A stretch of DNA of 20,121 nt. Source: Pseudobacteriovorax sp. (GTDB lineage: Bacteria > Bdellovibrionota_B > Oligoflexia > Oligoflexales > Oligoflexaceae). A program made the position numbers and the translations under genes. This document shows positions 1 to 20,121 of the stretch, piece after piece. The notes under the pieces were generated by a model, which made no database searches, was not told where the DNA came from, and was given only the letters and a program-made list of their open reading frames with translations. The stretch spans positions 1 through 20,121 of the forward strand of contig JBNKNM010000092.1 in the NCBI GenBank assembly GCA_050293845.1. The letters are read 5' to 3'. How positions within the stretch are numbered: the first letter of the stretch is position 1; each line of letters begins with the position of its first letter.

Positions 1-438
1 CAACATGTCCTTGCAAGGTCCGAAGCTTTGAGTCTTTTAGGGCAAGAAGTTTTGTTTCGCGTCGGACGCAATAGGCTATATTCAGTTTCGGAAGAGAAGT
101 CAGAAGTACTTAAAAGTGGACTCCAAATCAAAATTACGGCTTTAGAGTATAGAAATGATAGAATAAAGCTTAATATTAGTATGGATTTAAGTCAAGGCCA
201 GGGAAATCAAGCCAGATTTGATGCCAACGAGTTTAAATCTCAACTCTGGTTGAATCTGAATGAAGATATTATTGTTTCTTCATCTTCTATGGAAATATCA
301 GATCTAACAGAAAATGGAGTGCCGATTCTCAGAGAAATTCCGATAATTTCTCCGCTTTTTAAGGGCGATAGTCGCGGTACTTCGAAAGCACAGATTTTCA
401 TTAGTATGAAGATGGTGCTATTACAGGGGGAACATTGA
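1..438 (+). CDS. Secretin-family (type II/III secretion or Tad/type IV pilus) outer-membrane protein, C-terminal part; 5' end lies outside the window
   Basis: Frame is open from base 1 (QHVLARSEALSLLGQEVLFRVG...), so the TTG at 28 is probably not the start. GVPILREIPIISPLFK resembles the secretin C-terminal signature G(V/I)PxLxxIPxxGxLF. Confidence 0.7.
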   Translation, partial: QHVLARSEALSLLGQEVLFRVGRNRLYSVSEEKSEVLKSGLQIKITALEYRNDRIKLNISMDLSQGQGNQARFDANEFKSQLWLNLNEDIIVSSSSMEISDLTENGVPILREIPIISPLFKGDSRGTSKAQIFISMKMVLLQGEH

Positions 439-1404
439 GTTGTGCCGAAAAGGAATAACAGAATCGAGATTGTTAGCCTTCAATAGCAGAGCCAGTAGCC
501 GATCAAAACCAATTGCTATTCCGCAGCAATCGGCAATGCCATGCTGCAAGGCATTGAGAAAATCTGGATCGTGGGGTATCTCTGGTTTTCCTATGGTCCT
601 ACGGGATCGAGAACAGATTTCCAGTCGTGCAAGATTTTCCTTATAATCTGTAAGTTCCCAAAAAGCGTTACCCAGTTCGATACCTCCTAAGTAAACTTCA
701 AAGCGTTTAGCACGGTTGTTTTCCACGCGTGCTAGTGCACTTTGTGAGGGGGGGTAGTCGTATAAAATAGTAGCTACCTGTTGGGTCATCCAAGGTTCTA
801 CTGCGTCTAGCATAAGTTTAAAGAATGCTGTTTCAAAGTCATCTGATTTTTGAATCGAGATAAAACCTTTTCTAATAGCTTTTGCTGCTAGTTCTGTGTC
901 ATTATCAATAAGTTCGATACCAGTACACTGCAAGAAAATTTCGTATACCGATAGCCTAGGAAAATGCTGAGGTAACTCTAAAACTGTGAAGCCTGACGAT
1001 TTAAGCTTCTGACAACAGAAGTGAATAAGCTCTTCTGTAAGATTCATAAACCCATTGTAATTGATACCCGTTTGATAGAATTCCAACATAGTAAATTCCG
1101 GGTGGTGCCAATCTGTTTTTTCGCCACCATTACGAAAACATTTCCCAATATGATAAATTTTTTCTAAACCCTCCGCTAAGCATTGCTTTAAATGCAATTC
1201 AGGGCTTGATCTTAGAAATCGCTTATGTTTGAGTTCATGAAAATCTATCCATTTGGATTCAAAATAATCGAGATGCACTTCTGTTCCAGGGCAGGTGACA
1301 ATAATGGGTGCATCTATTTCTATGAAAGATCGACTATCAAAAAAATCCTCTATAGCACGCTTTAATATTTTTCTCGTATTTGAAATGAATGTCAGTTTAG
1401 TCAT
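421..1404 (-). CDS. epmA: EF-P lysine aminoacylase (EpmA/GenX/PoxA), LysRS catalytic-domain paralogue
   Basis: Motifs PGTEVHL, LRSSPELHLK, FRNGGE..HHPEFTMLEFY, DYPPSQSALA, RFEVY..GIELGNAFWEL, GIAIGFDRL; 327 aa with no anticodon-binding domain. Confidence 0.93.
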   Translation of the reverse strand: MTKLTFISNTRKILKRAIEDFFDSRSFIEIDAPIIVTCPGTEVHLDYFESKWIDFHELKHKRFLRSSPELHLKQCLAEGLEKIYHIGKCFRNGGEKTDWHHPEFTMLEFYQTGINYNGFMNLTEELIHFCCQKLKSSGFTVLELPQHFPRLSVYEIFLQCTGIELIDNDTELAAKAIRKGFISIQKSDDFETAFFKLMLDAVEPWMTQQVATILYDYPPSQSALARVENNRAKRFEVYLGGIELGNAFWELTDYKENLARLEICSRSRRTIGKPEIPHDPDFLNALQHGIADCCGIAIGFDRLLALLLKANNLDSVIPFRHNSMFPL

Positions 1405-3842
1405 TTTTTATCTTTACCAGGTTTAAAATGCAGTTTCTTTAACTTTGACTCAATGATAGCAAGGGCGGAATCTATAGCATATTCTCCTTCATAGGGAATT
1501 TTGTCGGTACCCAATTCATGATCGGTAGCAACCTTGAAAGCCTCCCAAGCATTTTTGATAGGAATAATTTTTAACTGGCCACTTTTAACACCTGATCGGG
1601 CATGTTCATGGAGCATCAAGTTAGAAACGTTTTTTTCTGGAATGAGCACAAAATATTCTTTGGATTCTCCAATGGCAGTGCAAGTTTTATAAAATCCTTC
1701 AATTTTTTCATTGACACCACCAATCACTTGCACTTCGCCATGTTGGTCTATAGAGCCTGTCACAGCTAAATTTTGTTTAATGGGAATACTGCTCAGTGAG
1801 CTGATTATGGCAATGAATTCTGCAACTGAGGCGCTATCACCATCAATGAGCCCGTAATTTTGTTCGAAGGTTATACTGGCAACAAGGCCATGGGGCTTTT
1901 TGCGTGATAGTAATGTGTTGATGATGCCAGTGAGGATGAATACCCCCTTATCATGAACCTTCCCAGAGAGACGGCTCTGACGTTCAATGTTGATGATGCC
2001 ACCATCACCTACAGAGTGGGTGCAGGTAATACGGCCAATCTTACCAAAGGCATAGTCACCATAATCATAGACGGCAAGTCCATTAATGCAGCCTATTTTA
2101 CTACCATCGACGCGGCTGATGATTTCTCCATTCTTGACAGAGCGTAGTAGAGTTTCTTCATATAGGTTATGCCGGTAGTATTTTTCATTAAGAGCATTTT
2201 CAACATCGGCACGGCGAATGGTTTTGGCCTTGCGCTCTCTGGCTAGAAAATTGGCTTCAATGGTTAAGTCTTTGATTTCAGAAAACTGTGTTGAGAGTAA
2301 GTTTTGATCTTCAACCAGCCGAGAACCATGTTCAATAATTGCGCATACCGCAGATTTCTCGAATGGTAAGAGATTCTCTTTTTCAGCTCTTGTGGCTATA
2401 AATGATACATAGTTTTGAATATTTTCAGTATTTTTTACCATTTTATAGTCAAAGTCAGCTTTTATCTTAAAGATTTTATGAAAATCTTCATCCTCATGAT
2501 AAAGAAAGTGATAGATTTCATCATTGCCGATCAGAATAACCTTTAGATCAAGGGGAATTGGGGCTGGGCGCAACCCTGACGTCGGCAATAGCGAATACTG
2601 CTCACCCATATCCTCAATAAATGCTTTTTGATTCTTTAAAACCCTTTTCAGCGCTTCCCAAATATTGCCAGTCCGAAATATATCTAGAACATTAAGTACT
2701 AGATAGCCACCATTGGCCCTATGAATAGCTCCCGCTTTGATCATCGTAAAATCAGTGAGGTACATACCATGTTCTACATTTTTTTCAATTTTGCCAAATA
2801 GGTTGTAGTAGGTGGGGTTGTTTTCAATGATTACAGGCGCTGCGCTCTTTTGACTGTTGTCTATGAATAAATTGATGCGATATTTATTAAATCGATTTTT
2901 GTCTTCTTGATACATTTGGCTATCTGGGTCGTCTTTATCGTCATCTTCAACAAAGTCTAATAGATTTTCCTTAATGTCTTCGATGACACTTTTCAAATAC
3001 TCCACGATTTCGGGAATCGATTGGTACTCTTCAATTAAATCTTCTACAGTGCTAGCAACAATTTGCTCACCTATGGCGTTACGTAAGTTTTCCACCTGCT
3101 CCCGGGTATCTTTATCGATGGAGCGAACCTTTCTAGCAAAGTCCAACACCTCAGGTTCAAACTCGCTGCGCTTTTGCTCAATATCTTCACGTTCTTTGTT
3201 TTTGAGCTTGCTATAATCTTTTTCTGACAATGGCAAACCATCAACAACGGGGATAGTTTCGATACCAACTCGTGTTGATTTGATGATAAAATTCCTCGCC
3301 TTGGCCAGTTTTTCGAGTTCGCTATACATTTTTGATTTTGTTTCGTTTGCAGAAGAGTAGAATGCATTGACTGCATTTTCATAATCTTCGCTTTGTAGCG
3401 CTAAGGGAATCTCATGCTTTAATGCTTTGACCAGTTTTTCCATGGTCTTTTTCAATTTTTTACCTTCACCAGCTGGTAAGCCAACAGCAATGGGGTTTTC
3501 CGTATCCTGAAAATTGTAAAGGTATATCCAGTCATAAGGGGCGGGAAGCTTTTCCGACCATTTCTGTAGAAAGCTATTAATAACGCTTGTTTTTCCAGTG
3601 CCCTCAATACCAGCTACGTAAATATTGTAACCCGACGAGTTGATACCCAGGCCCATATTGATGGCACGAATAGCTCGATTCTGGGAATAAATATCATGGG
3701 AAATATCCAATTCTTTTGTGGTATTAAAGGAAAACTGCCTAGCGCTACAACTAGAATAGACTTCACTAAAAGATAGGGGGCTGGGGCTTGCTGTTTTTGT
3801 CTTTAAATTTCTAGAACTAATTTTTTTCTTTTTCAAGACCAC
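1401..3842 (-). CDS. Lon-like protease (LonC-type; AAA-like module plus S16 protease domain)
   Basis: Walker A GIEGTGKT; NPTYYNLFGKIE; IKAGAIHRANGGYLVL; FKIKADF; catalytic Ser in DGDSAS and Lys in GGVNEKIEGF. Start is uncertain (GTG 3842 or TTG 3836). Confidence 0.88.
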   Translation of the reverse strand: MVLKKKKISSRNLKTKTASPSPLSFSEVYSSCSARQFSFNTTKELDISHDIYSQNRAIRAINMGLGINSSGYNIYVAGIEGTGKTSVINSFLQKWSEKLPAPYDWIYLYNFQDTENPIAVGLPAGEGKKLKKTMEKLVKALKHEIPLALQSEDYENAVNAFYSSANETKSKMYSELEKLAKARNFIIKSTRVGIETIPVVDGLPLSEKDYSKLKNKEREDIEQKRSEFEPEVLDFARKVRSIDKDTREQVENLRNAIGEQIVASTVEDLIEEYQSIPEIVEYLKSVIEDIKENLLDFVEDDDKDDPDSQMYQEDKNRFNKYRINLFIDNSQKSAAPVIIENNPTYYNLFGKIEKNVEHGMYLTDFTMIKAGAIHRANGGYLVLNVLDIFRTGNIWEALKRVLKNQKAFIEDMGEQYSLLPTSGLRPAPIPLDLKVILIGNDEIYHFLYHEDEDFHKIFKIKADFDYKMVKNTENIQNYVSFIATRAEKENLLPFEKSAVCAIIEHGSRLVEDQNLLSTQFSEIKDLTIEANFLARERKAKTIRRADVENALNEKYYRHNLYEETLLRSVKNGEIISRVDGSKIGCINGLAVYDYGDYAFGKIGRITCTHSVGDGGIINIERQSRLSGKVHDKGVFILTGIINTLLSRKKPHGLVASITFEQNYGLIDGDSASVAEFIAIISSLSSIPIKQNLAVTGSIDQHGEVQVIGGVNEKIEGFYKTCTAIGESKEYFVLIPEKNVSNLMLHEHARSGVKSGQLKIIPIKNAWEAFKVATDHELGTDKIPYEGEYAIDSALAIIESKLKKLHFKPGKDKK

Positions 3843-3883: not shown

Positions 3884-4594
3884 CTATAAATAAACATCCA
3901 TAACAGCGGTTAGTTTGAGTTCTCCAGCTACTTCATTTAGCTTATCAGATAGATCGAACTCCATAGCTGATGGCTTCAGCATCAGGAAGAGATTAGTTAA
4001 AAAATGCTCTCCTTTTCCTCTCGGCTCGGAAAGGAAATAGTCACCGTAGGCGTCTAGAAAGTCAAGAGCATCTTCGATAGTTTCTTCACTTGGCTTGCTG
4101 ATGAGATGCTGAATACCGCGTTTTAGCCATTGGGAAAGTTCTTGAAAATTGATTTGTTCTTTTATACCAAGTCTCAGGCATTCGTTACAAAGGTTGACCT
4201 TCATTTCGGCTGGTAGTTTTTTGTAATGGATACCATAGAAATAGTTGAGGGTCTTGTATGCTGATCGCCAATTTCTAGTGGATTCCATAATACGAACTTT
4301 TCTCATGGTCGTATCGTAGGACTCTATGGCGCTTTCAACTTCCTGGCGTTCTTTTAGCCTTCTCGCTTCAATTTCAGGACGGTAGCGATCTCTTAAAATA
4401 GTAAATGCCTTATTTATTTCGTTAAATGTCATAGGGTCGTGAACGTCGAGGCTCTTACCCAATGCATCAGATAAGTATTCAACTACATGGGGGATTTTAC
4501 ATTTAGATTTATCAGAAATCTGAACAATGCTCCACTTAACATTGTCCGGCCAGATCTTCAGAACCTTTTCCAGCTCCATTAAAAAATCTAGCAT
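3884..4594 (-). CDS. Hypothetical protein, 236 aa, predicted helical, possible N-terminal helix-turn-helix
   Basis: Long ORF with a strong RBS (AAAGGGGG) before the ATG; 41 bp upstream of and co-oriented with the Lon-like gene. Confidence 0.8.
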   Translation of the reverse strand: MLDFLMELEKVLKIWPDNVKWSIVQISDKSKCKIPHVVEYLSDALGKSLDVHDPMTFNEINKAFTILRDRYRPEIEARRLKERQEVESAIESYDTTMRKVRIMESTRNWRSAYKTLNYFYGIHYKKLPAEMKVNLCNECLRLGIKEQINFQELSQWLKRGIQHLISKPSEETIEDALDFLDAYGDYFLSEPRGKGEHFLTNLFLMLKPSAMEFDLSDKLNEVAGELKLTAVMDVYL

Positions 4595-4747: not shown

Positions 4748-4850
4748 CAGATAGGTCCCAGGTCCCCTGAAGAACTCGGAATATTTGGAGAGGCTTTGGA
4801 TTTTCTTAAGTAGAAAAAATTGTCAGTTGTCTTCGCAACCCATGGGCAGC

Positions 4851-4911
4851 TGGCTTTATACTCGCAAGCGAGAAGGTGCTTACTAGAACCGACTCACGCG
4901 AGAAAAAGCCA
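4851..4911. other. Long imperfect stem-loop just 3' of the small basic ORF
   Basis: Nested pairings TGGCTTT/AAAGCCA, CTCGC/GCGAG, GAG/CTC and GGT/ACC around a 10-nt loop. Confidence 0.5.
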
Positions 4912-4924
4912 ACAATCAAGCTTA

Positions 4925-5026
4925 CTAAGTACGCAATTGACGACGAAGTCTCATCATGCGACGCTTTTTGCGACCGACTTTTCTGCGACCTTTTGGATGC
5001 TTTCTCTTATGTCTTGAACCGTGCAA
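4925..5026 (-). CDS. Small, highly basic 33-aa protein MHGSRHKRKHPKGRRKVGRKKRRMMRLRRQLRT; possible ribosome/RNA-binding peptide
   Basis: Translated by hand. TTG start with GGAG 6 nt upstream; tandem TAG-TAA stops; 17 of 33 residues are Arg/Lys and none is acidic; all Gly codons are GGT and Arg uses CGT/CGC/AGA only. Below the ORF-track size cutoff. Confidence 0.75.
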   Translation of the reverse strand: MHGSRHKRKHPKGRRKVGRKKRRMMRLRRQLRT

Positions 5027-5201
5027 TGTTTACTCCAACAGAAGGTTAGTCAACGGAATATCGGAAACTATAGAGCTTTTGTAAAAAACGCAAGATATTT
5101 TTACTAGATTTTCTGTCTTACCATTGCGAAGAAATAGGTTAAAATGGAGTATAGGCTAGTAGCAACTGCTTTGATATTAATGGATTAAGGACTGAGTTAT
5201 T

Positions 5202-5708
5202 ATGGCGAGATCTCGCAAGAAGACGCACAGAAATTTTGCGGCCATCATTATTGAGCCATTCAAACAGCTCAAGCTGGGGGTCTATGTCATAGCTGTGTCT
5301 TTAACCTTTGTGGTGCTAACAGCACTGGTCTTTTTTAATGCTTTTTTCGAGCAATATCAGTACATTGTAGAAATGTTTCAGATAGTAGACCCGAACAATC
5401 AATGGGCGGCAGTAACCAATGATGTGTTCTATAAAAATGCAGTGCGGCTGGGTGTGTTATTGATTTGCTTTGTCATTGTTATCTTCTCTGTTGTCTTCTA
5501 TATCACCCATAAATACTATGGTCCTCTTATATCCATCAACCGTTTTTTGGAAGGGATTGCCAAGGGAGATTACTCCCAACGAGTAGTGATACGAAAAGGG
5601 GATGAATTGCAGGATCTGGCAGACCACCTGAATCAAATGGCAGAAAGCTTGCAAAAACGCCATGGGGTACCCTTCGACCAAGTCAATCACAAGAAGGGAA
5701 AAAGCTAG
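5202..5708 (+). CDS. Membrane protein with two TM helices and a C-terminal HAMP domain, no output domain
   Basis: Two hydrophobic segments, then GPLISINRFLEGIAKGDYSQRVVIRKGDELQDLADHLNQMAESL (HAMP pattern); AAGGA upstream. Confidence 0.85.
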   Translation: MARSRKKTHRNFAAIIIEPFKQLKLGVYVIAVSLTFVVLTALVFFNAFFEQYQYIVEMFQIVDPNNQWAAVTNDVFYKNAVRLGVLLICFVIVIFSVVFYITHKYYGPLISINRFLEGIAKGDYSQRVVIRKGDELQDLADHLNQMAESLQKRHGVPFDQVNHKKGKS

Positions 5709-5851: not shown

Positions 5852-6925
5852 ATGGAAGATTTCTTTAACCAAACCAGGAACCAGCTACGATGGCTCTGTT
5901 CCCGTCATTTTGCCGTTCCTGAACAGCATAGCGAGAGTCTCTTGCGTGCGGCATACAAGGACTTTGCCCGTGAACCATGGAACAACAGTAGGCTTCCTAA
6001 AGCCTTGCAGCAGATGGGAGAACGCTTCAGCACGCAAGGAGTTGTTGCTGAAAAGATCGCCGTATCTCGTTATGATGGCACCGTTAAATTCTTAGGCAAG
6101 CTCCATGATGGTACTCTCATTGAAACCGTATTAATGCCTGAAAAGCACCGCATTACAATCTGTGTTTCCAGCCAGGTGGGTTGTGCCCAGGCTTGCTCTT
6201 TTTGCTATACGGGACGCATGGGTTTGGTTAGAAATCTCAGTGCTGGGGAAATTGTTGGCCAAGTGATGTTGGCCAATCTATGGATTCGCCAGCATCCACG
6301 CTGGTGCCAGGACATAGGCTTGCCCTTGAACTCCCAAGTATCTAATTTGGTATTTATGGGAATGGGGGAGCCCTTAGACAATGTCTCCGAAGTTCTAAGA
6401 GCCATAGATATTTTAACAGAGCCTTTGGGTTTTGCCATGGCGCAGAGGAGAATTTCGGTATCCACAGCTGGACATCTTGAGGGTTTAAAGGCTCTTTTGT
6501 CGGAAAAACCGAATATCAACATAGCCTTTAGTTTACATGCCAGTTCTGACCGCGAACGGTCACAGTTAATGCCCATAAACCGCAAATGGCCCCTTGGTGA
6601 AGTATTGCATTTCATTAAAGAGTTTTATGGTAATACTACGAATAAAAAGCGCAAGGTTCTGATTCAGTATACTTTGATACACGGTGTAAATGATTCCATG
6701 GATCATGCTGATGCATTGGTCGAGCTCTTAAAAGAATTGCCGATCAAATTAAATATTATTCCTCTCAATGAAATTGATCCCTCCCGATTCCAGTCGCCGG
6801 CAGCGGAAACCTTAGAAGGATTTAAAAATCGCATTCACCAATCAGGTATCAGAGTTATGATACGTTACAGTAAGGGACAGGATATAGCTGCAGCATGTGG
6901 ACAATTGGTTGTGGGTGATGCTTAA
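5852..6925 (+). CDS. rlmN: 23S rRNA m2A2503 / tRNA m2A37 radical-SAM methyltransferase RlmN
   Basis: IETVLMP, TICVSSQVGCAQACSFC (CxxxCxxC), VFMGMGEPL, ISVSTAG, SLHA, GVNDS, GQDIAAACGQL. Confidence 0.93.
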   Translation: MEDFFNQTRNQLRWLCSRHFAVPEQHSESLLRAAYKDFAREPWNNSRLPKALQQMGERFSTQGVVAEKIAVSRYDGTVKFLGKLHDGTLIETVLMPEKHRITICVSSQVGCAQACSFCYTGRMGLVRNLSAGEIVGQVMLANLWIRQHPRWCQDIGLPLNSQVSNLVFMGMGEPLDNVSEVLRAIDILTEPLGFAMAQRRISVSTAGHLEGLKALLSEKPNINIAFSLHASSDRERSQLMPINRKWPLGEVLHFIKEFYGNTTNKKRKVLIQYTLIHGVNDSMDHADALVELLKELPIKLNIIPLNEIDPSRFQSPAAETLEGFKNRIHQSGIRVMIRYSKGQDIAAACGQLVVGDA

Positions 6926-7166: not shown

Positions 7167-9407
7167 ATGGAAGCAAAACTTAGCTATAATCAAACAAACT
7201 TTCGTATTCGCCTGCATGTAATTGCAAAACATGCATGGAACGATGATATTGATCCTGAAAATTTTATCCATAAAACCCGTAACAAATTGGATCATTTAGT
7301 TGAATTGGGAGACATTGACATTTACTATGTTTTTTCTTACCAATTCTTGCAATTTTGGCGGAACCTTAAAATGATCCCCAAGGATAACGACAGTCTCATA
7401 ACTTTCGATTTAGGCTTTGGAGCTAAGAAAATCGATATGCAACTGGGCCCGGGGAATAAAAATAACTATGCCTTTATAAAGAAAGTTCAAGAGGATTATT
7501 CAGGAATTTCATTTGAAAATTTTATGGTAAATGTGCTTTGTCGTTTAAAAGAAATTGAACTAGATCGGTATGCTTACGATCTCGGCATAAGAGCTGCTTA
7601 CTATCGTTGGGTGCGCAATAATCTGATTACACCGTACCCCCTAAGCAATAAAAAAAATCAACCACTCCAGGCATTGGATGTGAGTGCTACAGTTAACAAA
7701 AGCTTAAAAGAAGGATATCTATATGTAACTCATCCCTCCTATTTTAAATCTAAAGAGGGTTTAAAGGAATTATATGGTAAAGCCAAGGCCATGATGCCAA
7801 AAATTAAGTCGCAGTTTGCAAATTCTATATTCTTAAGTTCTGAGCTGATGAAAGAGTTCAAAGAAGAACTTACTAGGATCACCAGCATGGGAATTGATTT
7901 ACCAAAAGTATTTGTATTTGCCATTGATGATCCCAAAAGAAATAAAAAGAAAAAAGCCAATAGCCATAAATTACTTAAAAATCCAAATGACTGTTTTTTA
8001 AAAATTTCTGTGGATGATTTGGCGATGGAAGCCACCATAACAGGTTGTAGCAAGAATGTATTAACCCCAGCTTTTACTATTGATGAATCAGCTTTTATAA
8101 AAGAGCTTCAGTCACATGGGATTGTCTATGGTTATGCAGAATTCATGCAAGGGATTATCGGACGTATTAACAACAATGAAGAACTTAATGGAGAAGTGAT
8201 TGCTGAAGGATTGCATCCCAAGCCAGGAAGTCTTCCTTACCTTCATGTCACACACCTTGAAACTGAACTTGAGCACCAAGAAGGTGTCGATATCAGATCA
8301 ACCCAAAATCGTTTCGTAGTTGATCCCGGTGAAATTATTGCCGAAGCTCGCTTTCAGGATGGTAAAAGCGGCCTGGATGTTTTTGGTAAAGAAGTTCATG
8401 CTATAGCAGATTCAGAAGCTTTCAAAGTACGCCTAGGAAAAAATGTTACATACGATTCTCAGGGTAGAATTGCTTCTAAAATTCATGGTATGCCCTATAT
8501 TTTTAATAATAAGGTCGATTGCTCTCCTGTTTTTATTCATCAAGGGGATATCAACTTAAGCTCAGGAAATCTGGAGTTTGATGGATCCGCAGAGGTTCGG
8601 GGAAATATTGAAAGTGGAGCCAGTGTCACGGTTACGGAAAACCTGATTGTGACGGGTACTATAGGGCAAGCCTTCATCAATTGCCACGGCAACCTTATTG
8701 TTAAGGGAGGGATTGTAACCTCTGAGCGTGGATTAGTAGAAGTTGGAGGCAGACTGCAGGCGGAATTTGTAGAGAATTCTCGGATTACGGTGGGTGGCGA
8801 TATGGTCATTAGCCAGTCAGTGATTAACAGCAATGTGATTGTGGGCGGTAAGTTACATGTGACTGCTCCGCGCAGTGGTGTGATAGGTGGTGGTGTCATT
8901 AGCGCTAGGGAAAGGGTCATAACCGGCAGTTTGGGGTTTGAAGAAGGGCAAAAGACCATTTGTCGGATCGGTGTGGACTGGGTTTTCGAAAGGAAGATCA
9001 CCATTCAAAAAGATCGTTTAGTAAGAGTAGCTGATATAGAACAAAAGGAAACTAAGATTCTAAATGAGCTTAAAAAACAAACCTCCCTCAGGCAAGATGC
9101 ACGTAAAATCGAACAGCGGGACAAACTGCAGAAAAGGCTCGATCGTATTGGTCCCATTCGGCGGAAAATTGAAGCTAAAATTAAGCTTTTCCAAAGTCAG
9201 TTAACCTGGAATCGGGACGCTATTCTCATTGTCAATAATTTGCTAAGTCCTAATAGTGAGATTAATGTAGGTAACAAAGTCATCCCAGTGGGGCAGCAGT
9301 TAAAGGCTGTGATTTTAACCTACCATAAGCTCAGAAATGGGCGTACCAACCCGATTGAATACCTTAGCGATTTCGAGAATCGCATTTCAGGACCTAAGGC
9401 CTCGTAA
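7167..9407 (+). CDS. FapA family (DUF342) protein with a long N-terminal extension
   Basis: LKISVDDLAMEA, GIVYG, VIAEGLHPKPG, VDPGEIIAE, GLDVFGKEV, GDINLSSGNLEFDGSAEVRGNI, beta-helix-like Gly/Val repeats, GVIGGG and a C-terminal coiled coil follow the DUF342 layout. Confidence 0.85.
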   Translation: MEAKLSYNQTNFRIRLHVIAKHAWNDDIDPENFIHKTRNKLDHLVELGDIDIYYVFSYQFLQFWRNLKMIPKDNDSLITFDLGFGAKKIDMQLGPGNKNNYAFIKKVQEDYSGISFENFMVNVLCRLKEIELDRYAYDLGIRAAYYRWVRNNLITPYPLSNKKNQPLQALDVSATVNKSLKEGYLYVTHPSYFKSKEGLKELYGKAKAMMPKIKSQFANSIFLSSELMKEFKEELTRITSMGIDLPKVFVFAIDDPKRNKKKKANSHKLLKNPNDCFLKISVDDLAMEATITGCSKNVLTPAFTIDESAFIKELQSHGIVYGYAEFMQGIIGRINNNEELNGEVIAEGLHPKPGSLPYLHVTHLETELEHQEGVDIRSTQNRFVVDPGEIIAEARFQDGKSGLDVFGKEVHAIADSEAFKVRLGKNVTYDSQGRIASKIHGMPYIFNNKVDCSPVFIHQGDINLSSGNLEFDGSAEVRGNIESGASVTVTENLIVTGTIGQAFINCHGNLIVKGGIVTSERGLVEVGGRLQAEFVENSRITVGGDMVISQSVINSNVIVGGKLHVTAPRSGVIGGGVISARERVITGSLGFEEGQKTICRIGVDWVFERKITIQKDRLVRVADIEQKETKILNELKKQTSLRQDARKIEQRDKLQKRLDRIGPIRRKIEAKIKLFQSQLTWNRDAILIVNNLLSPNSEINVGNKVIPVGQQLKAVILTYHKLRNGRTNPIEYLSDFENRISGPKAS

Positions 9408-10423: not shown

Positions 10424-11170
10424 ATGAAAGAAAAGAATAAGAAAATTAGCCTTTTAAACTTGATGATACAGAGAGGGCTTGCTGTTAATGAAGATCAAGC
10501 TCGCGGCTTAATTATGGCAGGCCAAGTCATTGTAGATGACCAAAGGGTGGATAAGCCCGGTAAATTAATATCGAGCTTAGCACAATTGCGCGTCAAGGGG
10601 CAGAACCCTTATGTGTCTAGGGGAGGAGCCAAGCTTGCCGGAGCTGTGGCTGATTTAGGTCTCGCATCAGAGTTTAATAATTCTGTCGTTCTTGATGTAG
10701 GAGCTTCAACAGGAGGGTTTACAGACTGTTCTTTACAGTTGGGAGCCAGATATGTCTATGCCGTTGATGTTGGTACCAATCAGCTAGCATGGAAACTGCG
10801 CAATCATCCCCGCATAAAGTCTATGGAAAAAACAGATATTAGAACTTTTGAGTCATGTATTGATTCTGAAATCTCTATTGTTGTGGCTGACGTGAGTTTT
10901 ACGAGTCTATCCAATGTCCTACCCTCCATTTTAAGGGCGAGTCCCAAGTCCGGGGTAAGATATTTACTTCTCATTAAACCGCAGTTCGAATTAGATCCTT
11001 CCTTAGTGCCAGTCGGGGGAATAGTTGCTGATGAAGGCTTAAGGCAATTGGCGGTAAATCATGTAATCGCTACCTTAGCACATCTTAGATTCCTAAACCC
11101 GACTGTTATTGAGAGCAAAGTAGCAGGCAGAAATGGCAACAAGGAGGTCTTTATTTTTTTTCAAAATTAG
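10424..11170 (+). CDS. tlyA: TlyA-family rRNA 2'-O-methyltransferase (S4 plus FtsJ domain)
   Basis: LIMAGQV, DKPG, YVSRGGAKL, LDVGASTGGFTD, VYAVDVGTNQL, DVSFTSL, LIKPQFE, GRNGNKE. Confidence 0.93.
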   Translation: MKEKNKKISLLNLMIQRGLAVNEDQARGLIMAGQVIVDDQRVDKPGKLISSLAQLRVKGQNPYVSRGGAKLAGAVADLGLASEFNNSVVLDVGASTGGFTDCSLQLGARYVYAVDVGTNQLAWKLRNHPRIKSMEKTDIRTFESCIDSEISIVVADVSFTSLSNVLPSILRASPKSGVRYLLLIKPQFELDPSLVPVGGIVADEGLRQLAVNHVIATLAHLRFLNPTVIESKVAGRNGNKEVFIFFQN

Positions 11171-15161: not shown

Positions 15162-16688
15162 TTAACGGATAGTATCTTCCACTGATTTGTGGGGGTGGAA
15201 TAGAGAACGAGGTATTTCAGGAAAAAGGGTATTTGCTAGTAAGCCATTTCCTAGTAATTCGTATAGGACGGTTTCATGGTAAATCACGTCATGATCGCCA
15301 AGGTGCTTACGGGCTAAGATCCAAAATGGAGATTGCGTCTCCATATAAACATTTTCATCATCAATCAATTCGGCAGCGACAAACACAGGGTTAAAGTGTG
15401 TGGCTTTTTGGGGGTTAGCCAGAAATTTTTCTTTATCCTCGGCGCTGGCGTGGGGAACCTCTAGGCAGAGAGTCGTTCTTCCATGTTTGGTGTTTATCAC
15501 CACAGGCGTACCTCCAATATCCTTCCCAGAATTGGGGACTTGGCCTAGGGTATTGACAGGGCGCTGATACAGCTTGCGAAGTAATTCTAAGGAATTTTCA
15601 ATGCTAAAATAGTTACTTACGGTTTCGGGATAGCATTGAAATACTTCGATCTGTAGTCGCCAAAGTTCTCGAACTTCAGAGCTTTGTTGCTCGATAAACT
15701 CATATGGTTCCGCAGGGGGGGGAACACAAATCTGCTCTCTTAAGTGTTTTGCCATTTTATTAGCCTTGGCAAGGTTACTTTCCTTTAATGCAGCTCTTAT
15801 ATTTTTGATGACCCCCAATACCAGTTGATGCTGCGCAAGAAAGGCCCTGGTCGCTTGTAGGGTACTTTCGTTAGTTCCCATAATATTATCGATATTACGA
15901 ATAAACAGGGAGTGACAGGGCGGAAAATATTTTTTTACGTCAGGAATGAGTTTTGCCAGAGTTCCATGCCCCGCTGGGACAGGAGAAAGCTGTTCGTGTT
16001 CGTTGCGAAAGGGAGAGCCATTCAAATGAAAACGGATCGTGGAGAGTTTAGGGCCCTGCTCCAAAAATAGCGGAGCACCTTCCTTTGGCACAGACTCAAT
16101 ATGCAAATTGGCAGCAAATTTTTCGGCCTTTCCAGGGGGCACGATATAGACTTCTCCTGCGATGCCCTCAATCGAGGCATTTTCCTGGTGCTTAGCATTA
16201 AGATAGCTAGTGTTGTCATGACGACATGGTTGCACTGCTTTTGGTTTTTGCAAGGCTTTGCGAATGTCATCAGCCTTTTCTAGGCAGACACGAGCCGATT
16301 TCAGCATAGAATCTTTGACGATCGGAGGTAGGCACCAACCGGCTAAGCCCTTTAGCTTTAGATGCTTTAGTTCGATCTCAACTTGCTCGGTATCGTTGGT
16401 TTCTATGCTTGCTAAAAATGGGTTGAGGCTTTTAAAGTATCGGGTAGCAGCTCCTGCAGAAGGGGTAAAACTGACATATCCGCTGGGGTCTGGCCATAAG
16501 TCCTTAGATAAAAATACCTGAGGAAGAATACCTCCATTATCAATGCGACAGGTATCATGAATGGCTATTGATGATTTAACTTGGTGGGAAAGACTTTGTA
16601 AAATCCGAGTCTGATGTAATATGATTTCATGGGGATTAAGACCGAGAGATCGTAGCTCTTCCACGTTCAATTCTTCATTGCTAATCAT
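15162..16688 (-). CDS. DUF4301-family protein (nucleotidyltransferase/UDPGP-like fold)
   Basis: FTPSAGAATRYFK, PAGHGTL, FIRNIDN, RPVNTLGQVPNSGKDIGGTP, ATHFNPV and LFHPHKSVED parallel the DUF4301 motifs as I recall them (FVPASGAASRMFK, GHGAL, FIKNIDN, ATHFNPV, FNPVKTV). Confidence 0.8.
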   Translation of the reverse strand: MISNEELNVEELRSLGLNPHEIILHQTRILQSLSHQVKSSIAIHDTCRIDNGGILPQVFLSKDLWPDPSGYVSFTPSAGAATRYFKSLNPFLASIETNDTEQVEIELKHLKLKGLAGWCLPPIVKDSMLKSARVCLEKADDIRKALQKPKAVQPCRHDNTSYLNAKHQENASIEGIAGEVYIVPPGKAEKFAANLHIESVPKEGAPLFLEQGPKLSTIRFHLNGSPFRNEHEQLSPVPAGHGTLAKLIPDVKKYFPPCHSLFIRNIDNIMGTNESTLQATRAFLAQHQLVLGVIKNIRAALKESNLAKANKMAKHLREQICVPPPAEPYEFIEQQSSEVRELWRLQIEVFQCYPETVSNYFSIENSLELLRKLYQRPVNTLGQVPNSGKDIGGTPVVINTKHGRTTLCLEVPHASAEDKEKFLANPQKATHFNPVFVAAELIDDENVYMETQSPFWILARKHLGDHDVIYHETVLYELLGNGLLANTLFPEIPRSLFHPHKSVEDTIR

Positions 16689-17929
16689 TTGCTAACACCT
16701 TGATGTTGATATCGCCAAATACTTAAAGACCGACGCGCCATATCTCTAACACGTTTAGAGTCATCCTGTACCATAGCTTTTAAGTAGGGCTCGACAAGTT
16801 CGCTGCTTGGAAAGTTTGCTAGGGCGCTACAAACTTCGCTTTTGGCCCACGAATTTAGGGTATTATGAGTGAGCCTCGGCAAAAGGTCTAGTGCGCAGTT
16901 TTTGTCCATGGAGACTAATCGTTCCAGAATAACTTTCAGGGTTTTAGGTCGCCATTGGGTGATGTTATCCAGGTTTGCTATTGCTTTAAGCTGATCGATT
17001 TTAAATTTGTTAAAGACTCGCCATTGAATGGGTTCCGGCAGTCTGCGAAGCTGGTTGAGAGCTGGGGGATTCGCACTCAAGGTATGAGCCAGTTTTCCAG
17101 CGATGATATCGAAACCTAGATGGCTTAACCGTAAAATTTTTTGTTGACCAACTTGTTCCTCATAAAGAAGTTGTAAATTTTGTAATTTACTGATGTGTGC
17201 AGCGTTGAGTATGGGGATTAGCTTGCTTAGCTCTTTTAGACTACGTCCTTGCCAACCGACTGCTTCGAGAATAGAAAAAAAGAAACTAACTCTAGAAAAT
17301 TCCATGCGTTCTTTTTTTTGAAACCTCTCCTGTTCAAAAAGATCACGCAAACGATAAAGGTCTATCATCCAGGGGGTTACTTTCAGCTCTTCATTGAGAT
17401 TGGTGAGGATTTCATTCATAAGGTGGACTAATTCGCTGGAAAAAATGTAGGTGGAATCGTCCTTGCTCGAAAGCTCTGCCACCGAGCTTAAAAATTGCAG
17501 AAGACTGCTCCCAAAACCAATGTCAGCTCTCAAAGACTGGTCTGAATCTGCAGTAACACAAGCTATTAAGATATGTCGCAAAAAATCTCGATCATAACGT
17601 TCGGTATTCCAGTCTTTTTCCACGGGGAAATAACTTTGCAAAAGTTCAATACAAACCTCAACAATCTCATAAGATTGTTGACTTGCTAAGTTGTATTCTG
17701 TTGTAGAAAAATCGACAGCAAGCTCTAAAAGAGCAGAAGAGTGTACCCATGATTGATGACGAAAAAATATATAACCCAAATCTATTTGAATAACTTTTAT
17801 TAAACCTAAAGGTAGTGTTTGCTGTGAGCTTTCTAGCTGAACTCTTATCATTTGAAAAATTTTCGAAATCAGGTCTTGGCATCGATGTTCCTTGAGAAAT
17901 TTTGCTTTGCCATACATTTCGTTGATCAT
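16685..17929 (-). CDS. Hypothetical protein with central winged-helix-like segment and C-terminal HEAT-like repeat
   Basis: ORF runs 16685-17998; the ATG at 17929 has GAGGT and AGGA upstream and is the more likely start. C-terminal AKSEVCSALANF...LKAMVQDDSKRVRDMARRSL is HEAT-like. Stop overlaps the DUF4301 start (ATGA). Confidence 0.75.
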   Translation of the reverse strand: MINEMYGKAKFLKEHRCQDLISKIFQMIRVQLESSQQTLPLGLIKVIQIDLGYIFFRHQSWVHSSALLELAVDFSTTEYNLASQQSYEIVEVCIELLQSYFPVEKDWNTERYDRDFLRHILIACVTADSDQSLRADIGFGSSLLQFLSSVAELSSKDDSTYIFSSELVHLMNEILTNLNEELKVTPWMIDLYRLRDLFEQERFQKKERMEFSRVSFFFSILEAVGWQGRSLKELSKLIPILNAAHISKLQNLQLLYEEQVGQQKILRLSHLGFDIIAGKLAHTLSANPPALNQLRRLPEPIQWRVFNKFKIDQLKAIANLDNITQWRPKTLKVILERLVSMDKNCALDLLPRLTHNTLNSWAKSEVCSALANFPSSELVEPYLKAMVQDDSKRVRDMARRSLSIWRYQHQGVSK

Positions 17930-18128
17930 ATATCCTATTACCTCTGTAGAATCTAATATATAAAATACTAGCAGATTTAATACTATTTTTGGAATCATTC
18001 AAATTGATTCGTCCATATTTATTTAGGCATCTGTGACAACTGCCGACACGATGATTAGAATCCTACATATAATGTGAGCAAAGACGAAACTATTACAAAT
18101 TTATTAATGAATTAGGTCAGTACGGTTG

Positions 18129-20121
18129 ATGCAAAGAGATCCTAAAAATCTGGCAAAACTTCTACTATCTATTGGTTTTGTAAAAGACGAAAATAGGATA
18201 AACTCCTATTCATTTCAAAATGATGTAGAAGCAGCTCTTGATAAACCCTGGCTTATTAATCGTTGGGTCATTACCAGTTCCCACGGTAAGTGGGAGACAG
18301 AACAAATTGATATTTGCACCGCAATCGAAACACTTGGTAACAGACTTGATCAAGCGTTTAAGGCTGTTTATGGTCCTAGTACCAAACTGGAACTTATTCC
18401 TGCTTTAAACTATGGAGTTTGGGTACTGGTGGAGCTTTTACAGACACAGCCAAAACAAGGCGAATTTCCCAATGGAACTATCGGATTTCATTTTAATTTA
18501 ACCAGTGAGGGAGATAGCTTATGCTTACATTTTTCTAAGCATTTTATTATTGGATATGCTCCCCCTCATTTCTTAGTGGAAACATCTTTTATATTTTTAA
18601 AATGCCTGAACTTCACCCACGAAAAAATAACGTATAAAAGAGGGATCTTTGAAAGTAGAGTAGATTTTGTTGACTTCTTGTTACACAACATAGATCGCCA
18701 TGACAAACTTTCTAAACTTAGGGAGCAGGCTGTTGATTTAGGGAATTCATTAAAGGAAGGAATAAAAACCCATCTGAAGTCGAGGTTTAATGGTCGTCAC
18801 TGGCAGATAACAGCTACAAATCTGGATAGTAGTCTTTTTGAGTTTGATGTGCCTCCTATAGAAATAGTTGAATCAAGAGAACTGGGAATAAAATTTCATA
18901 AGATTGACGGTCTCATATTGAATAATAAAATCTCAGAAGCAAAGCAGCTTTGTCATGCAGCATTAGAAGAAGAAGGAGACTCGCTCTTTCTTCTCAGGAG
19001 AATAAGTATCATCGCTTTAGCTGAAGAAAAGCCCATTTCAGAGTCTTTACTTAGCAGAATGTTATCTATTGATAGCGAAAATCTTTTGTTTCTATCCATA
19101 GCTAGCTATAGTGCAATGAAAGAGAATAGGACTAAAAATCAATTAAAATATTTATCAAAAATGGGCCAGTTATTAAATGAAGAATTGACAAATTTTGATG
19201 AATTGCAAACCATGGATATGGTCTTGCCAGAGTTATTGGGCGATGGCTGGGCTCCTGTAGATCTCCAAACAGCTCAAACCTGTTACCAGCGAGTTGTGCA
19301 AAAGCGAGGTGATGTACCACGGGTTCTAAGAAAGTTGGTAAGCATCGCGCGGGAGAGACAGGATATTAATGGCGAAATTCAGCTGTTGAGCCGACTAGTT
19401 GAGGTTGATACTGATAAGAATCTCGTAGCTGAAAATTATATGAGACTTGCCAATCTTTATCAAAGCAACGATATAAGGCTTGCAGCAGAGAATGCCCTTA
19501 GTGCTTGGAAGCTTGATCCTACGAATACCAATTATGCAGAATTTGCCGCATATGGTTTAGTGCAAAGTAAAGATTTTGAAAAGGCTGTGCGCGTTCTCGA
19601 TGATTGTCGTAAATTTATTGATTCTGTTGCGGATAATCAGAAAAAAATAAATCTGGAATTAGCCATTGCCAGAATTTGGTTCACTTTTTTAAAAAGGAAA
19701 GATCTGGCAAAACTTAGGATCGAGCATGCTTTATTGCTCATGCCAGACGATTTGGAAAATTTAAAGCGCTGCGAAGATATTAGCTTAGAGTTTGGCGAGG
19801 AATCATTACTCGTTGATATTCGTCAGAGAATATTCCATCAGGCCCTCCGCATTAGAAATAAAACTGAAGTTTTTCGCGTTGTGGATCACCTTCTCAAACA
19901 TTATAAAACTCAAGCGAATATGGATGCTCAAATTGTCAAAATTTATGAAAAATTAATCCAACACTATCTCATCAGTCATGAGGAACTTTACGGCCTATTA
20001 TCTTTGAAAAAAGTGAGTATCGATTGGACAAGATTGGTTGAAAATATTGAAAATCATGTAGATGCAGAAAAAGACATCGATAAACAACCTTATCTCATAT
20101 TTATGGGAGAAGTTTCGCAAT
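18129..20121 (+). CDS. Large TPR-repeat protein, N-terminal 664 aa; 3' end lies outside the window
   Basis: Translated by hand: MQRDPKNLAKLLLSIGF...PYLIFMGEVSQ with no stop to the window end; in-frame TGA at 18108 bounds the start (ATG 18129 or TTG 18126, AGGT upstream). TPR-like segments TAQTCYQRVVQKRGD, YMRLANLY...AAENALSAWKLDPTN, IEHALLLMPDDLENL. Confidence 0.85.
   Translation, partial: MQRDPKNLAKLLLSIGFVKDENRINSYSFQNDVEAALDKPWLINRWVITSSHGKWETEQIDICTAIETLGNRLDQAFKAVYGPSTKLELIPALNYGVWVLVELLQTQPKQGEFPNGTIGFHFNLTSEGDSLCLHFSKHFIIGYAPPHFLVETSFIFLKCLNFTHEKITYKRGIFESRVDFVDFLLHNIDRHDKLSKLREQAVDLGNSLKEGIKTHLKSRFNGRHWQITATNLDSSLFEFDVPPIEIVESRELGIKFHKIDGLILNNKISEAKQLCHAALEEEGDSLFLLRRISIIALAEEKPISESLLSRMLSIDSENLLFLSIASYSAMKENRTKNQLKYLSKMGQLLNEELTNFDELQTMDMVLPELLGDGWAPVDLQTAQTCYQRVVQKRGDVPRVLRKLVSIARERQDINGEIQLLSRLVEVDTDKNLVAENYMRLANLYQSNDIRLAAENALSAWKLDPTNTNYAEFAAYGLVQSKDFEKAVRVLDDCRKFIDSVADNQKKINLELAIARIWFTFLKRKDLAKLRIEHALLLMPDDLENLKRCEDISLEFGEESLLVDIRQRIFHQALRIRNKTEVFRVVDHLLKHYKTQANMDAQIVKIYEKLIQHYLISHEELYGLLSLKKVSIDWTRLVENIENHVDAEKDIDKQPYLIFMGEVSQ

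Follow-up and report, generated by a model that had tools for sequence, protein, structure and literature searches.

A short reading frame and its expression signals

The window, by which we mean the whole 20,121-nt stretch of Pseudobacteriovorax sp. DNA analysed here (genome G000), carries on its minus strand a short reading frame for a strongly basic peptide, together with putative signals for its transcription, translation and 3' end formation:

4925..5026, minus strand: coding sequence of the polycationic 33-aa protein, opening with TTG (5026-5024) and closing with TAG TAA (4927-4922), of which the first stop falls within the listed end of the ORF
5033..5036, minus strand: Shine-Dalgarno sequence GGAG, 6 nt ahead of the TTG (GGAG, GGAGG or GAGG is similarly placed in most of 47 start-aligned loci)
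5065..5093, minus strand: predicted promoter-like element, TTGCGT (5093-5088), 17-nt spacer, TAGTTT (5070-5065)
4849..4913, minus strand: predicted stem-loop directly after the stop, terminator- or stabiliser-like, with no adjacent U-run

The ORF runs from 5026 to 4925, the position at which a first-pass annotation of this DNA had described it, and reads M(TTG)HGSRHKRKHPKGRRKVGRKKRRMMRLRRQLRT, giving the full product MHGSRHKRKHPKGRRKVGRKKRRMMRLRRQLRT. Because an in-frame stop lies two codons 5' of the TTG, with a single sense codon between them, a longer reading frame is impossible. The peptide contains 11 Arg, 6 Lys and 3 His and no Asp or Glu (Lys+Arg, 17/33), for a net charge of about +17; the 11 Arg and 6 Lys, the TTG start and the well-spaced GGAG are thus as first annotated. 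Two further features singled out at that time, the double stop and the absence of acidic residues, hold for the window's own gene but not for its family: among the first 20 loci the double stop is present in the window's locus only, and some family members have Glu at position 30. Neither a signal peptide nor a hydrophobic face is present, as judged from the sequence and from an AlphaFold2 model. In this model, which was built with an alignment, a helix is predicted at residues 5-9, followed by a break at His10-Pro11 and a long helix at residues 11-32 (mean pLDDT 80.9).

Codon use, which had been called restricted, shows such a trend, although with little statistical weight. The 11 Arg codons are exclusively CGT, CGC and AGA, and all three Gly codons are GGT; CGA, CGG and AGG, which the peptide avoids, together make up 35% of the Arg codons in 14 genes of the window (P ~0.009) and 25% of those in 23 ribosomal-protein genes of the same genome (P ~0.04). 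With so small a sample, this pattern points only weakly to high expression. A search for sequencing runs that contain the sequence listed seven DNA runs from two studies and no RNA run.

Upstream of the gene, the only conserved blocks that could be seen by eye among 10 loci of the window's own family, f1, were TTGC.TTTT and, 21 nt later, TA. A consensus promoter scan returned an overlapping site (TTTACA/GATATT, 5085-5057) that scored no better than shuffled sequences. At the other end, the 131 nt of the minus strand starting from the stop codon (4930-4800) have a predicted fold of -39.8 kcal/mol (z = -3.0 vs 200 shuffles). Stable folding of this region recurs across the family: for the 90-nt segment downstream of the stop, 35 of the 47 loci score z < -2 (median z -3.1). 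A run of at least five T is found in 18/47.

Genomic neighbourhood

The immediate neighbours are a HAMP-domain protein gene (5202-5708, plus strand) and a gene for a 236-aa protein of no family (3884-4594, minus strand). The first-pass annotation had instead named the translation genes epmA and rlmN. Both identifications were correct (epmA, 421-1404, minus strand, TIGR00462, 290.5 bits, cut-off 286.9; rlmN, 5852-6925, plus strand, TIGR00048, 295 bits, cut-off 290), but neither gene is adjacent to the peptide gene: rlmN lies 0.8 kb away, beyond the HAMP gene, and epmA 3.5 kb away. An argument from association with these two genes is therefore weak, all the more so since the peptide gene has a promoter-like box and a 3' hairpin of its own and, beyond the window's order, is surrounded by different genes.

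The 236-aa gene, which matches no Pfam or NCBIfam family and is preceded by its own conserved promoter-like block, follows the peptide gene on the same strand in nearly all loci of the window's order. By tblastn it was matched in 62 of 114 loci, all of them from that order (31-81% identity), and it was absent from the Silvanigrellales, f4 and second-phylum loci. Further along the same strand, a gene for a LonC-like protease (1401-3842; PF13654, PF20436, PF20437, PF05362) runs 4 nt into the start of epmA. The arrangement suggests an operon comprising the 236-aa gene, the LonC-like gene and epmA.

Other lineages have other surroundings. In family f4, the distance from the peptide gene to a following LonC-like gene is 157 nt in L039 and 51 nt in L042. 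A separate locus, L032, has a same-strand gene for an Rsm22-like methyltransferase (PF09243) 1.1 kb downstream. In the Silvanigrellaceae, the peptide gene is flanked by genes on the opposite strand; in two genera of this family (L033:1713-2659 and L035:3397-4336) it is convergent with rplM-rpsI, the S9 gene ending 330 and 289 nt away, respectively. Overall, the neighbours vary among lineages (RecA, ScpB, LonC-like, HAMP) and the context is mostly non-ribosomal. Judged by its predicted promoter and 3' hairpin, the peptide gene is a free-standing and probably separately transcribed unit.

Elsewhere in the window, a TlyA-family rRNA 2'-O-methyltransferase gene (10424-11170, plus strand; TIGR00478, 197 bits) is a third translation-related gene besides rlmN and epmA. 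Four large ORFs (746, 508, 437 and more than 665 aa), located at 7167-9407 (plus), 15162-17998 (minus) and 18126-20120 (plus), had no NCBIfam match at E <= 1e-5.

The frame is conserved and bears the marks of purifying selection

A six-frame search of 41 related genomes recovered the peptide in 39 of them, at 76-97% identity. For an analysis of coding signatures, 47 loci were extracted, containing 45 distinct coding sequences (990 pairs). Variable sites were concentrated at third codon positions (31/32), as compared with first (21/32) and second positions (12/32), and the mean pS of 0.75 against a mean pN of 0.15 gives a pN/pS ratio of 0.20. Invariant Arg columns are encoded by both AGR and CGN codons. 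This codon-position pattern indicates a translated frame under strong purifying selection and rules out the overlapping plus-strand ORFs. In addition, the start codon switches among TTG, GTG and ATG at one fixed position across the 47 loci, with a Shine-Dalgarno box retained 5' of it, whereas the in-frame sequence 5' of the start is unconserved and of variable length. The comparison with relatives that had been proposed for this ORF, including a test for synonymous-biased substitution, thus came out in its favour: peptide, frame, start and Shine-Dalgarno box are conserved, and third positions are near saturation.

At the protein level, the N-terminal 22 residues are nearly invariant (G-S-R-H-x-R-K-H-x-K-G-R-R-K-x-G-x-K-x-R), and the Arg-rich C-terminal part is more variable. 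Among 28 sequences drawn from two phyla, 15 columns show no variation, and these include Gly, Ser and His positions. The degree of conservation is comparable to that of two ribosomal proteins, bL34 and bL36. When the G000 copies were compared with those of four genomes from across the class, the peptide was 73-94% identical, which places it between bL34 (59-71%) and bL36 (84-89%).

On these comparative data, we consider the segment at 4925-5026 (minus strand) to be almost certainly a genuine gene, translated in the frame given and subject to strong purifying selection. A chance intergenic ORF might have been suspected from the short length, the TTG start and the low complexity, and from an exact look-up in which the window's precise peptide was missing from the protein collection; the retention of frame, start, Shine-Dalgarno box and residues across 125 genomes, with synonymous sites saturated, already refutes that explanation.

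A single-copy core gene of the Oligoflexia

A profile built from nine members matched 125 of the 131 genomes in the window's GTDB phylum (Bdellovibrionota, class Oligoflexia, in NCBI terms), among them 79 of 83 high-quality genomes and 53 of 55 genera, with the family occurring in the orders Oligoflexales and Silvanigrellales. Each matched genome has one strong match, and a second, weak one was found in two genomes only (G020 and G099; E 7e-4 and 0.01). The gene is retained in small genomes of 1.2-1.8 Mb (G097, G029, G048 and G128) and in a Daphnia pathogen. The six genomes of the phylum that have no peptide match include G041 and G042, which belong to family f17 and are discussed below, and G130 (98% complete). 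In G130 the 580-aa gene that flanks the peptide gene in a congener was not found either, so gene loss and an assembly gap are indistinguishable in this genome.

Searching one genome per species (185,579 species) with two strict peptide patterns yielded 32 confirmed loci, including some in apparently mislabelled metagenome-assembled genomes (Polynucleobacter, 2; Bdellovibrio sp., 1; Bacteriovoracaceae, 1). The last of these, G131, falls outside the 131-genome phylum; in the second GTDB phylum, to which it belongs, 5 of 251 sampled genomes have a form of the peptide that is one residue longer just after the start. The gene is therefore a single-copy core gene of the Oligoflexia, with a small number of further occurrences in a second GTDB phylum. 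Among 1.84 billion representative proteins, the profile matched seven clusters at E <= 0.001, all plainly of the same family, several of which bear spurious N-terminal extensions. The sole public name that we found was 'hypothetical protein Spiro2_000314', from Spirobacillus cienkowskii.

The family matches no named protein family

Neither Pfam nor NCBIfam contained a family matching the peptide at E <= 10 (hmmscan). Against all PDB chains, HMMER searches with the peptide and with the profile (E <= 10) gave a single hit, a His-tagged Get2 fragment (E 1.8) that we attribute to its His tag; this chain set should include the bL37, bTHX and eL41 chains of at least 20 residues, so that a relationship to these three proteins, named in the first-pass annotation as examples of the same kind, finds no support. 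A Foldseek search of PDB with the AlphaFold2 model had no match, an Rfam search across the whole window returned no family, and the eL41 profile (PF05162) matched neither the peptide nor anything in G000. The nearest named ESM clusters were eL41 (0.88), a cluster with COX24_C on 26% of its members (0.86) and bL37 (0.82); as all of these scores are below 0.9, they serve as leads only. In the literature that we searched on Oligoflexia ribosomal proteins and on the distribution of bS22, bL38 and bL37, we found no description of such a family. By these sequence searches, the 33-aa family belongs to no named family, as had been anticipated, and is previously undescribed in the literature covered.

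One apparent relative was suggested by eye. The peptide resembles the core of bL34 in the succession H-G-x-R ... G-R-x-x-V ... R-R, both being Arg-rich and both having H-G-[FS]-R early in the segment that matches, which raised the idea of a truncated, divergent bL34 paralogue. However, a canonical bL34 gene lies elsewhere in G000 (C90, 81.8 bits) and in 5/5 relatives tested, Pfam Ribosomal_L34 (PF00468) does not match the peptide, and an hhalign comparison of the family with six Oligoflexia bL34 sequences returned a probability of 1.0%. We rejected this origin, which is close to refuted.

Within the class, bS22 and the 33-aa peptide are almost mutually exclusive

The ribosomal protein bS22, which we take to be related to mitochondrial mS38 and to have eL41 as its eukaryotic counterpart, is the named protein to which the distribution of the peptide draws attention. 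Searches for COX24_C (PF08213) and for ribo_bS22 (NF047430) across the phylum found the same three genomes, G041, G042 and G027, with those for PF08213 being above cut-off. Two of them, G041 (94% complete; PF08213, 32.1 bits; NF047430, 57.2 bits) and G042 (96% complete; 26.5 and 36.0 bits; NF047430 cut-off, 34), are the only two members of family f17, and in neither did the 33-aa peptide have a credible match at E <= 10, the one hit (14.5 bits) being spurious. The f17 genes are as follows:

L082:1495-1590, minus strand: canonical 31-aa bS22, GTG start behind GGAGG
L083:1498-1593, plus strand: canonical 31-aa bS22, GTG start behind GGAGG

Positional orthology between the f17 bS22 gene and the peptide gene was not found: the former adjoins a pheA-like gene, on opposite sides in the two genomes, which is not the context of the latter. 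The third genome, G027, carries both, a bS22-like ORF of 33 bits, just under the cut-off (L081, G027:C237), and the peptide on G027:C1065. This genome is rated 8% contaminated and its bS22-like ORF sits on a 2.1-kb contig, whose GC content (45.6% vs 44.9%) does not set it apart from the contig with the peptide. Within the class, then, bS22 and the 33-aa peptide are almost mutually exclusive, G027 excepted. This complementarity is the strongest functional hint that we have, and it consists of a single evolutionary contrast, in one clade and two genomes. Both bS22 and the 33-aa peptide are missing from most of the 251 genomes sampled in the second phylum. In many bacteria the bS22 pocket is simply unoccupied, and a genome that lacks bS22 is thus not in need of a substitute. 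Three second-phylum genomes of 1.6-1.8 Mb (G178, G186 and G170; L095-L097) contain a bS22 variant that passes the cut-off of PF08213 but not that of NF047430, with no Shine-Dalgarno box visible in the 25 nt upstream.

The comparison with bS22/COX24 profiles that had been recommended for the peptide gave no sign of sequence homology. In a six-frame search, G000 had no match to PF08213 (E <= 10) or to NF047430 (E <= 0.01); Smith-Waterman alignments of the peptide with three bS22 sequences scored below the mean of composition-matched shuffles (z -0.6 to -1.0, 5000 shuffles each); hhalign of the 33-aa family with bS22 returned a probability of 1.1%; and the invariant motif GSRH.RKH.KGRRK.G was absent from the six canonical bS22 sequences that we collected. 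The bS22 profiles also miss our control genome, Bacteroides thetaiotaomicron, although, according to PMC10618245 and PMC12123416, cryo-EM places this protein in the ribosomes of Bacteroidetes and Borrelia, where it is about 19% identical to mycobacterial bS22. A profile miss therefore does not exclude a bS22 role. These papers describe a protein of 30-33 aa with more than 50% Lys/Arg that is overlooked or labelled hypothetical in annotation, whose gene lies outside ribosomal operons and in Borrelia begins with GTG, and which is defined structurally by a pocket formed by 16S h2/h27/h44/h45, with contacts to 23S H68-H70 (PMC10618245, PMC12123416).

Possible functions of the 33-aa protein

The reading that we favour, with a probability of roughly 55%, is that the 33-aa protein is a structural constituent of the ribosome. 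It draws on the complementary pattern with bS22, on size and charge, and on precedents such as the unannotated bS22 of Borrelia. A fixed N-terminal motif with a looser Arg helix, a single copy per genome, retention in small genomes and an evolutionary rate resembling those of bL34 and bL36 are what would be expected of a peptide buried in rRNA. They would be less typical of a weapon, a leader peptide or an unspecific polyanion binder. Within its lineage, the family is near-universal, single-copy and slowly evolving, as is generally the case for ribosomal proteins. We infer both the binding to the ribosome and its site. As we picture it, the near-invariant 22 N-terminal residues would thread into an rRNA pocket while the Arg-rich helix at the C terminus, which is more variable, would run alongside an rRNA helix and offset its phosphate charge, a mode of working analogous to that of bS22, eL41, bL37 and bTHX. 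The likeliest site would be the h44/h45 pocket, located where the subunits meet and occupied by bS22 in other phyla. That the protein is indeed a bS22-site analogue filling this pocket is a more tentative proposition. It would be possible, on that basis, that the Oligoflexia swapped canonical bS22, still present in f17, for an unrelated 33-aa protein in the same h44/h45 pocket near the decoding centre. Such a swap, which we put forward with the same reserve, would amount to a non-homologous displacement of a ribosomal protein, by a new family defined by GSRH.RKH.KGRRK.G.

The main competing explanation, a serious one though we think it less probable than a structural place in the ribosome, is that the protein binds nucleic acid in some other capacity, as a nucleoid protein of the protamine type, as an RNA chaperone, or as a factor that associates with the ribosome or its assembly in sub-stoichiometric amounts; in that case the positive charge would serve to compact or screen DNA or RNA. 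With 17/33 Lys/Arg plus three His, the composition would suit any polyanion binder, the family has no homology to any ribosomal family, and in most lineages the gene lies outside ribosomal operons among variable neighbours. However, binders driven by charge tolerate drift, whereas this family has 15 invariant columns and evolves at the same pace as bL34 and bL36, which together suggest a fixed and highly specific partner surface such as rRNA; moreover, the complementarity with bS22 would be left without an explanation. An action outside the cytoplasm or on other cells, as an antimicrobial peptide, a predation-related factor or a small toxin, is improbable. Short Arg-rich peptides can be membrane-active, and some members of the NCBI Bdellovibrionota are predators, but the peptide lacks a signal peptide and a hydrophobic face, no antitoxin or transporter partner is conserved alongside it across orders, and each genome has one strong match to a near-invariant sequence, unlike the diversification and fluctuating copy number that are usual for weapons and toxins. 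Its retention in small genomes and in a Daphnia pathogen also speaks against such a use.

We rejected, as very improbable, a regulatory role for the ORF as an upstream ORF or leader peptide whose translation, for example at its 11 Arg codons, would control the downstream genes for the 236-aa protein, the LonC-like protease and EpmA. Gene order lends this idea its appeal: in almost every locus of the window's order the 236-aa gene comes next on that strand, and in f4 the LonC-like gene begins 51-157 nt further on. But residues other than Arg, which a codon-sensing leader does not need, are invariant too; a stable hairpin follows the stop in 35/47 loci; the 236-aa gene has a conserved promoter-like block of its own; and the next gene in Silvanigrellales is convergent, so that nothing lies downstream to regulate.

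Returning to the ribosomal reading, the original proposal of a lineage-restricted, tiny, basic ribosomal or nucleic-acid-binding protein is borne out as regards an overlooked gene that is phylum-wide, under purifying selection and without a family, and its bS22 lead gains indirect support from the f17 genomes; sequence homology with bS22/COX24 is not supported. Regardless of function, a core gene of a whole class has been missed or left unnamed by gene callers and family libraries, and a simple HMM made from the present alignment would let annotation pipelines name the family. If the protein is ribosomal, the family would join the short list of lineage-specific bacterial ribosomal proteins (bS22, bL37, bL38, bTHX), and if the swap is true it would be a natural case of one tiny protein replacing another near the decoding centre and the aminoglycoside site. 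Cultured members of the class exist (Silvanigrella, Oligoflexus, Pseudobacteriovorax), which makes the ribosomal hypothesis directly testable.

Comparison with known small ribosomal proteins

The peptide is similar to bL34 and bL36 in size, charge and evolutionary rate within the same genomes. The canonical genes of both lie elsewhere in G000, and the 33-aa family has no Cys and hence no zinc ribbon of the bL36 type. In the Thermus protein bTHX (26 aa, small subunit), a lineage-restricted, tiny and Arg/Lys-rich polypeptide is buried in 16S rRNA. The 33-aa peptide is like it in lineage restriction, small size and richness in Arg and Lys, but comes from a different phylum and has no sequence match to a PDB chain. 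Mycobacterial bL37 (24 aa, large subunit) is likewise tiny, basic and encoded by a standalone gene. It is nine residues shorter, and the peptide had no HMMER match to a PDB chain or an NCBIfam model; a stretch R-K-H-[S/P]-K that the two have in common was seen by eye only, in the bL37 sequence given in the supplement of PMC10618245.

The closest parallel is offered by bS22, to which the peptide has no detectable sequence relationship. By eye, the Flavobacterium and Borrelia sequences included in the supplement of PMC10618245 share with the peptide a pair of small residues after the start, a basic run and a His at about position 10. Both proteins are of the same size class and consist of Lys and Arg by more than half, and both are encoded by standalone genes, often with a non-ATG start, that annotation misses or calls hypothetical. 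Like bS22, the peptide as modelled has a short N-terminal segment, a bend and a long helix; the predicted bent two-helix shape is compatible with the bent helix described for bS22, such a shape being a non-specific feature. In their distribution the two proteins are set apart in a complementary manner, with f17 having bS22 only and the rest of the class, G027 excepted, having only the peptide.
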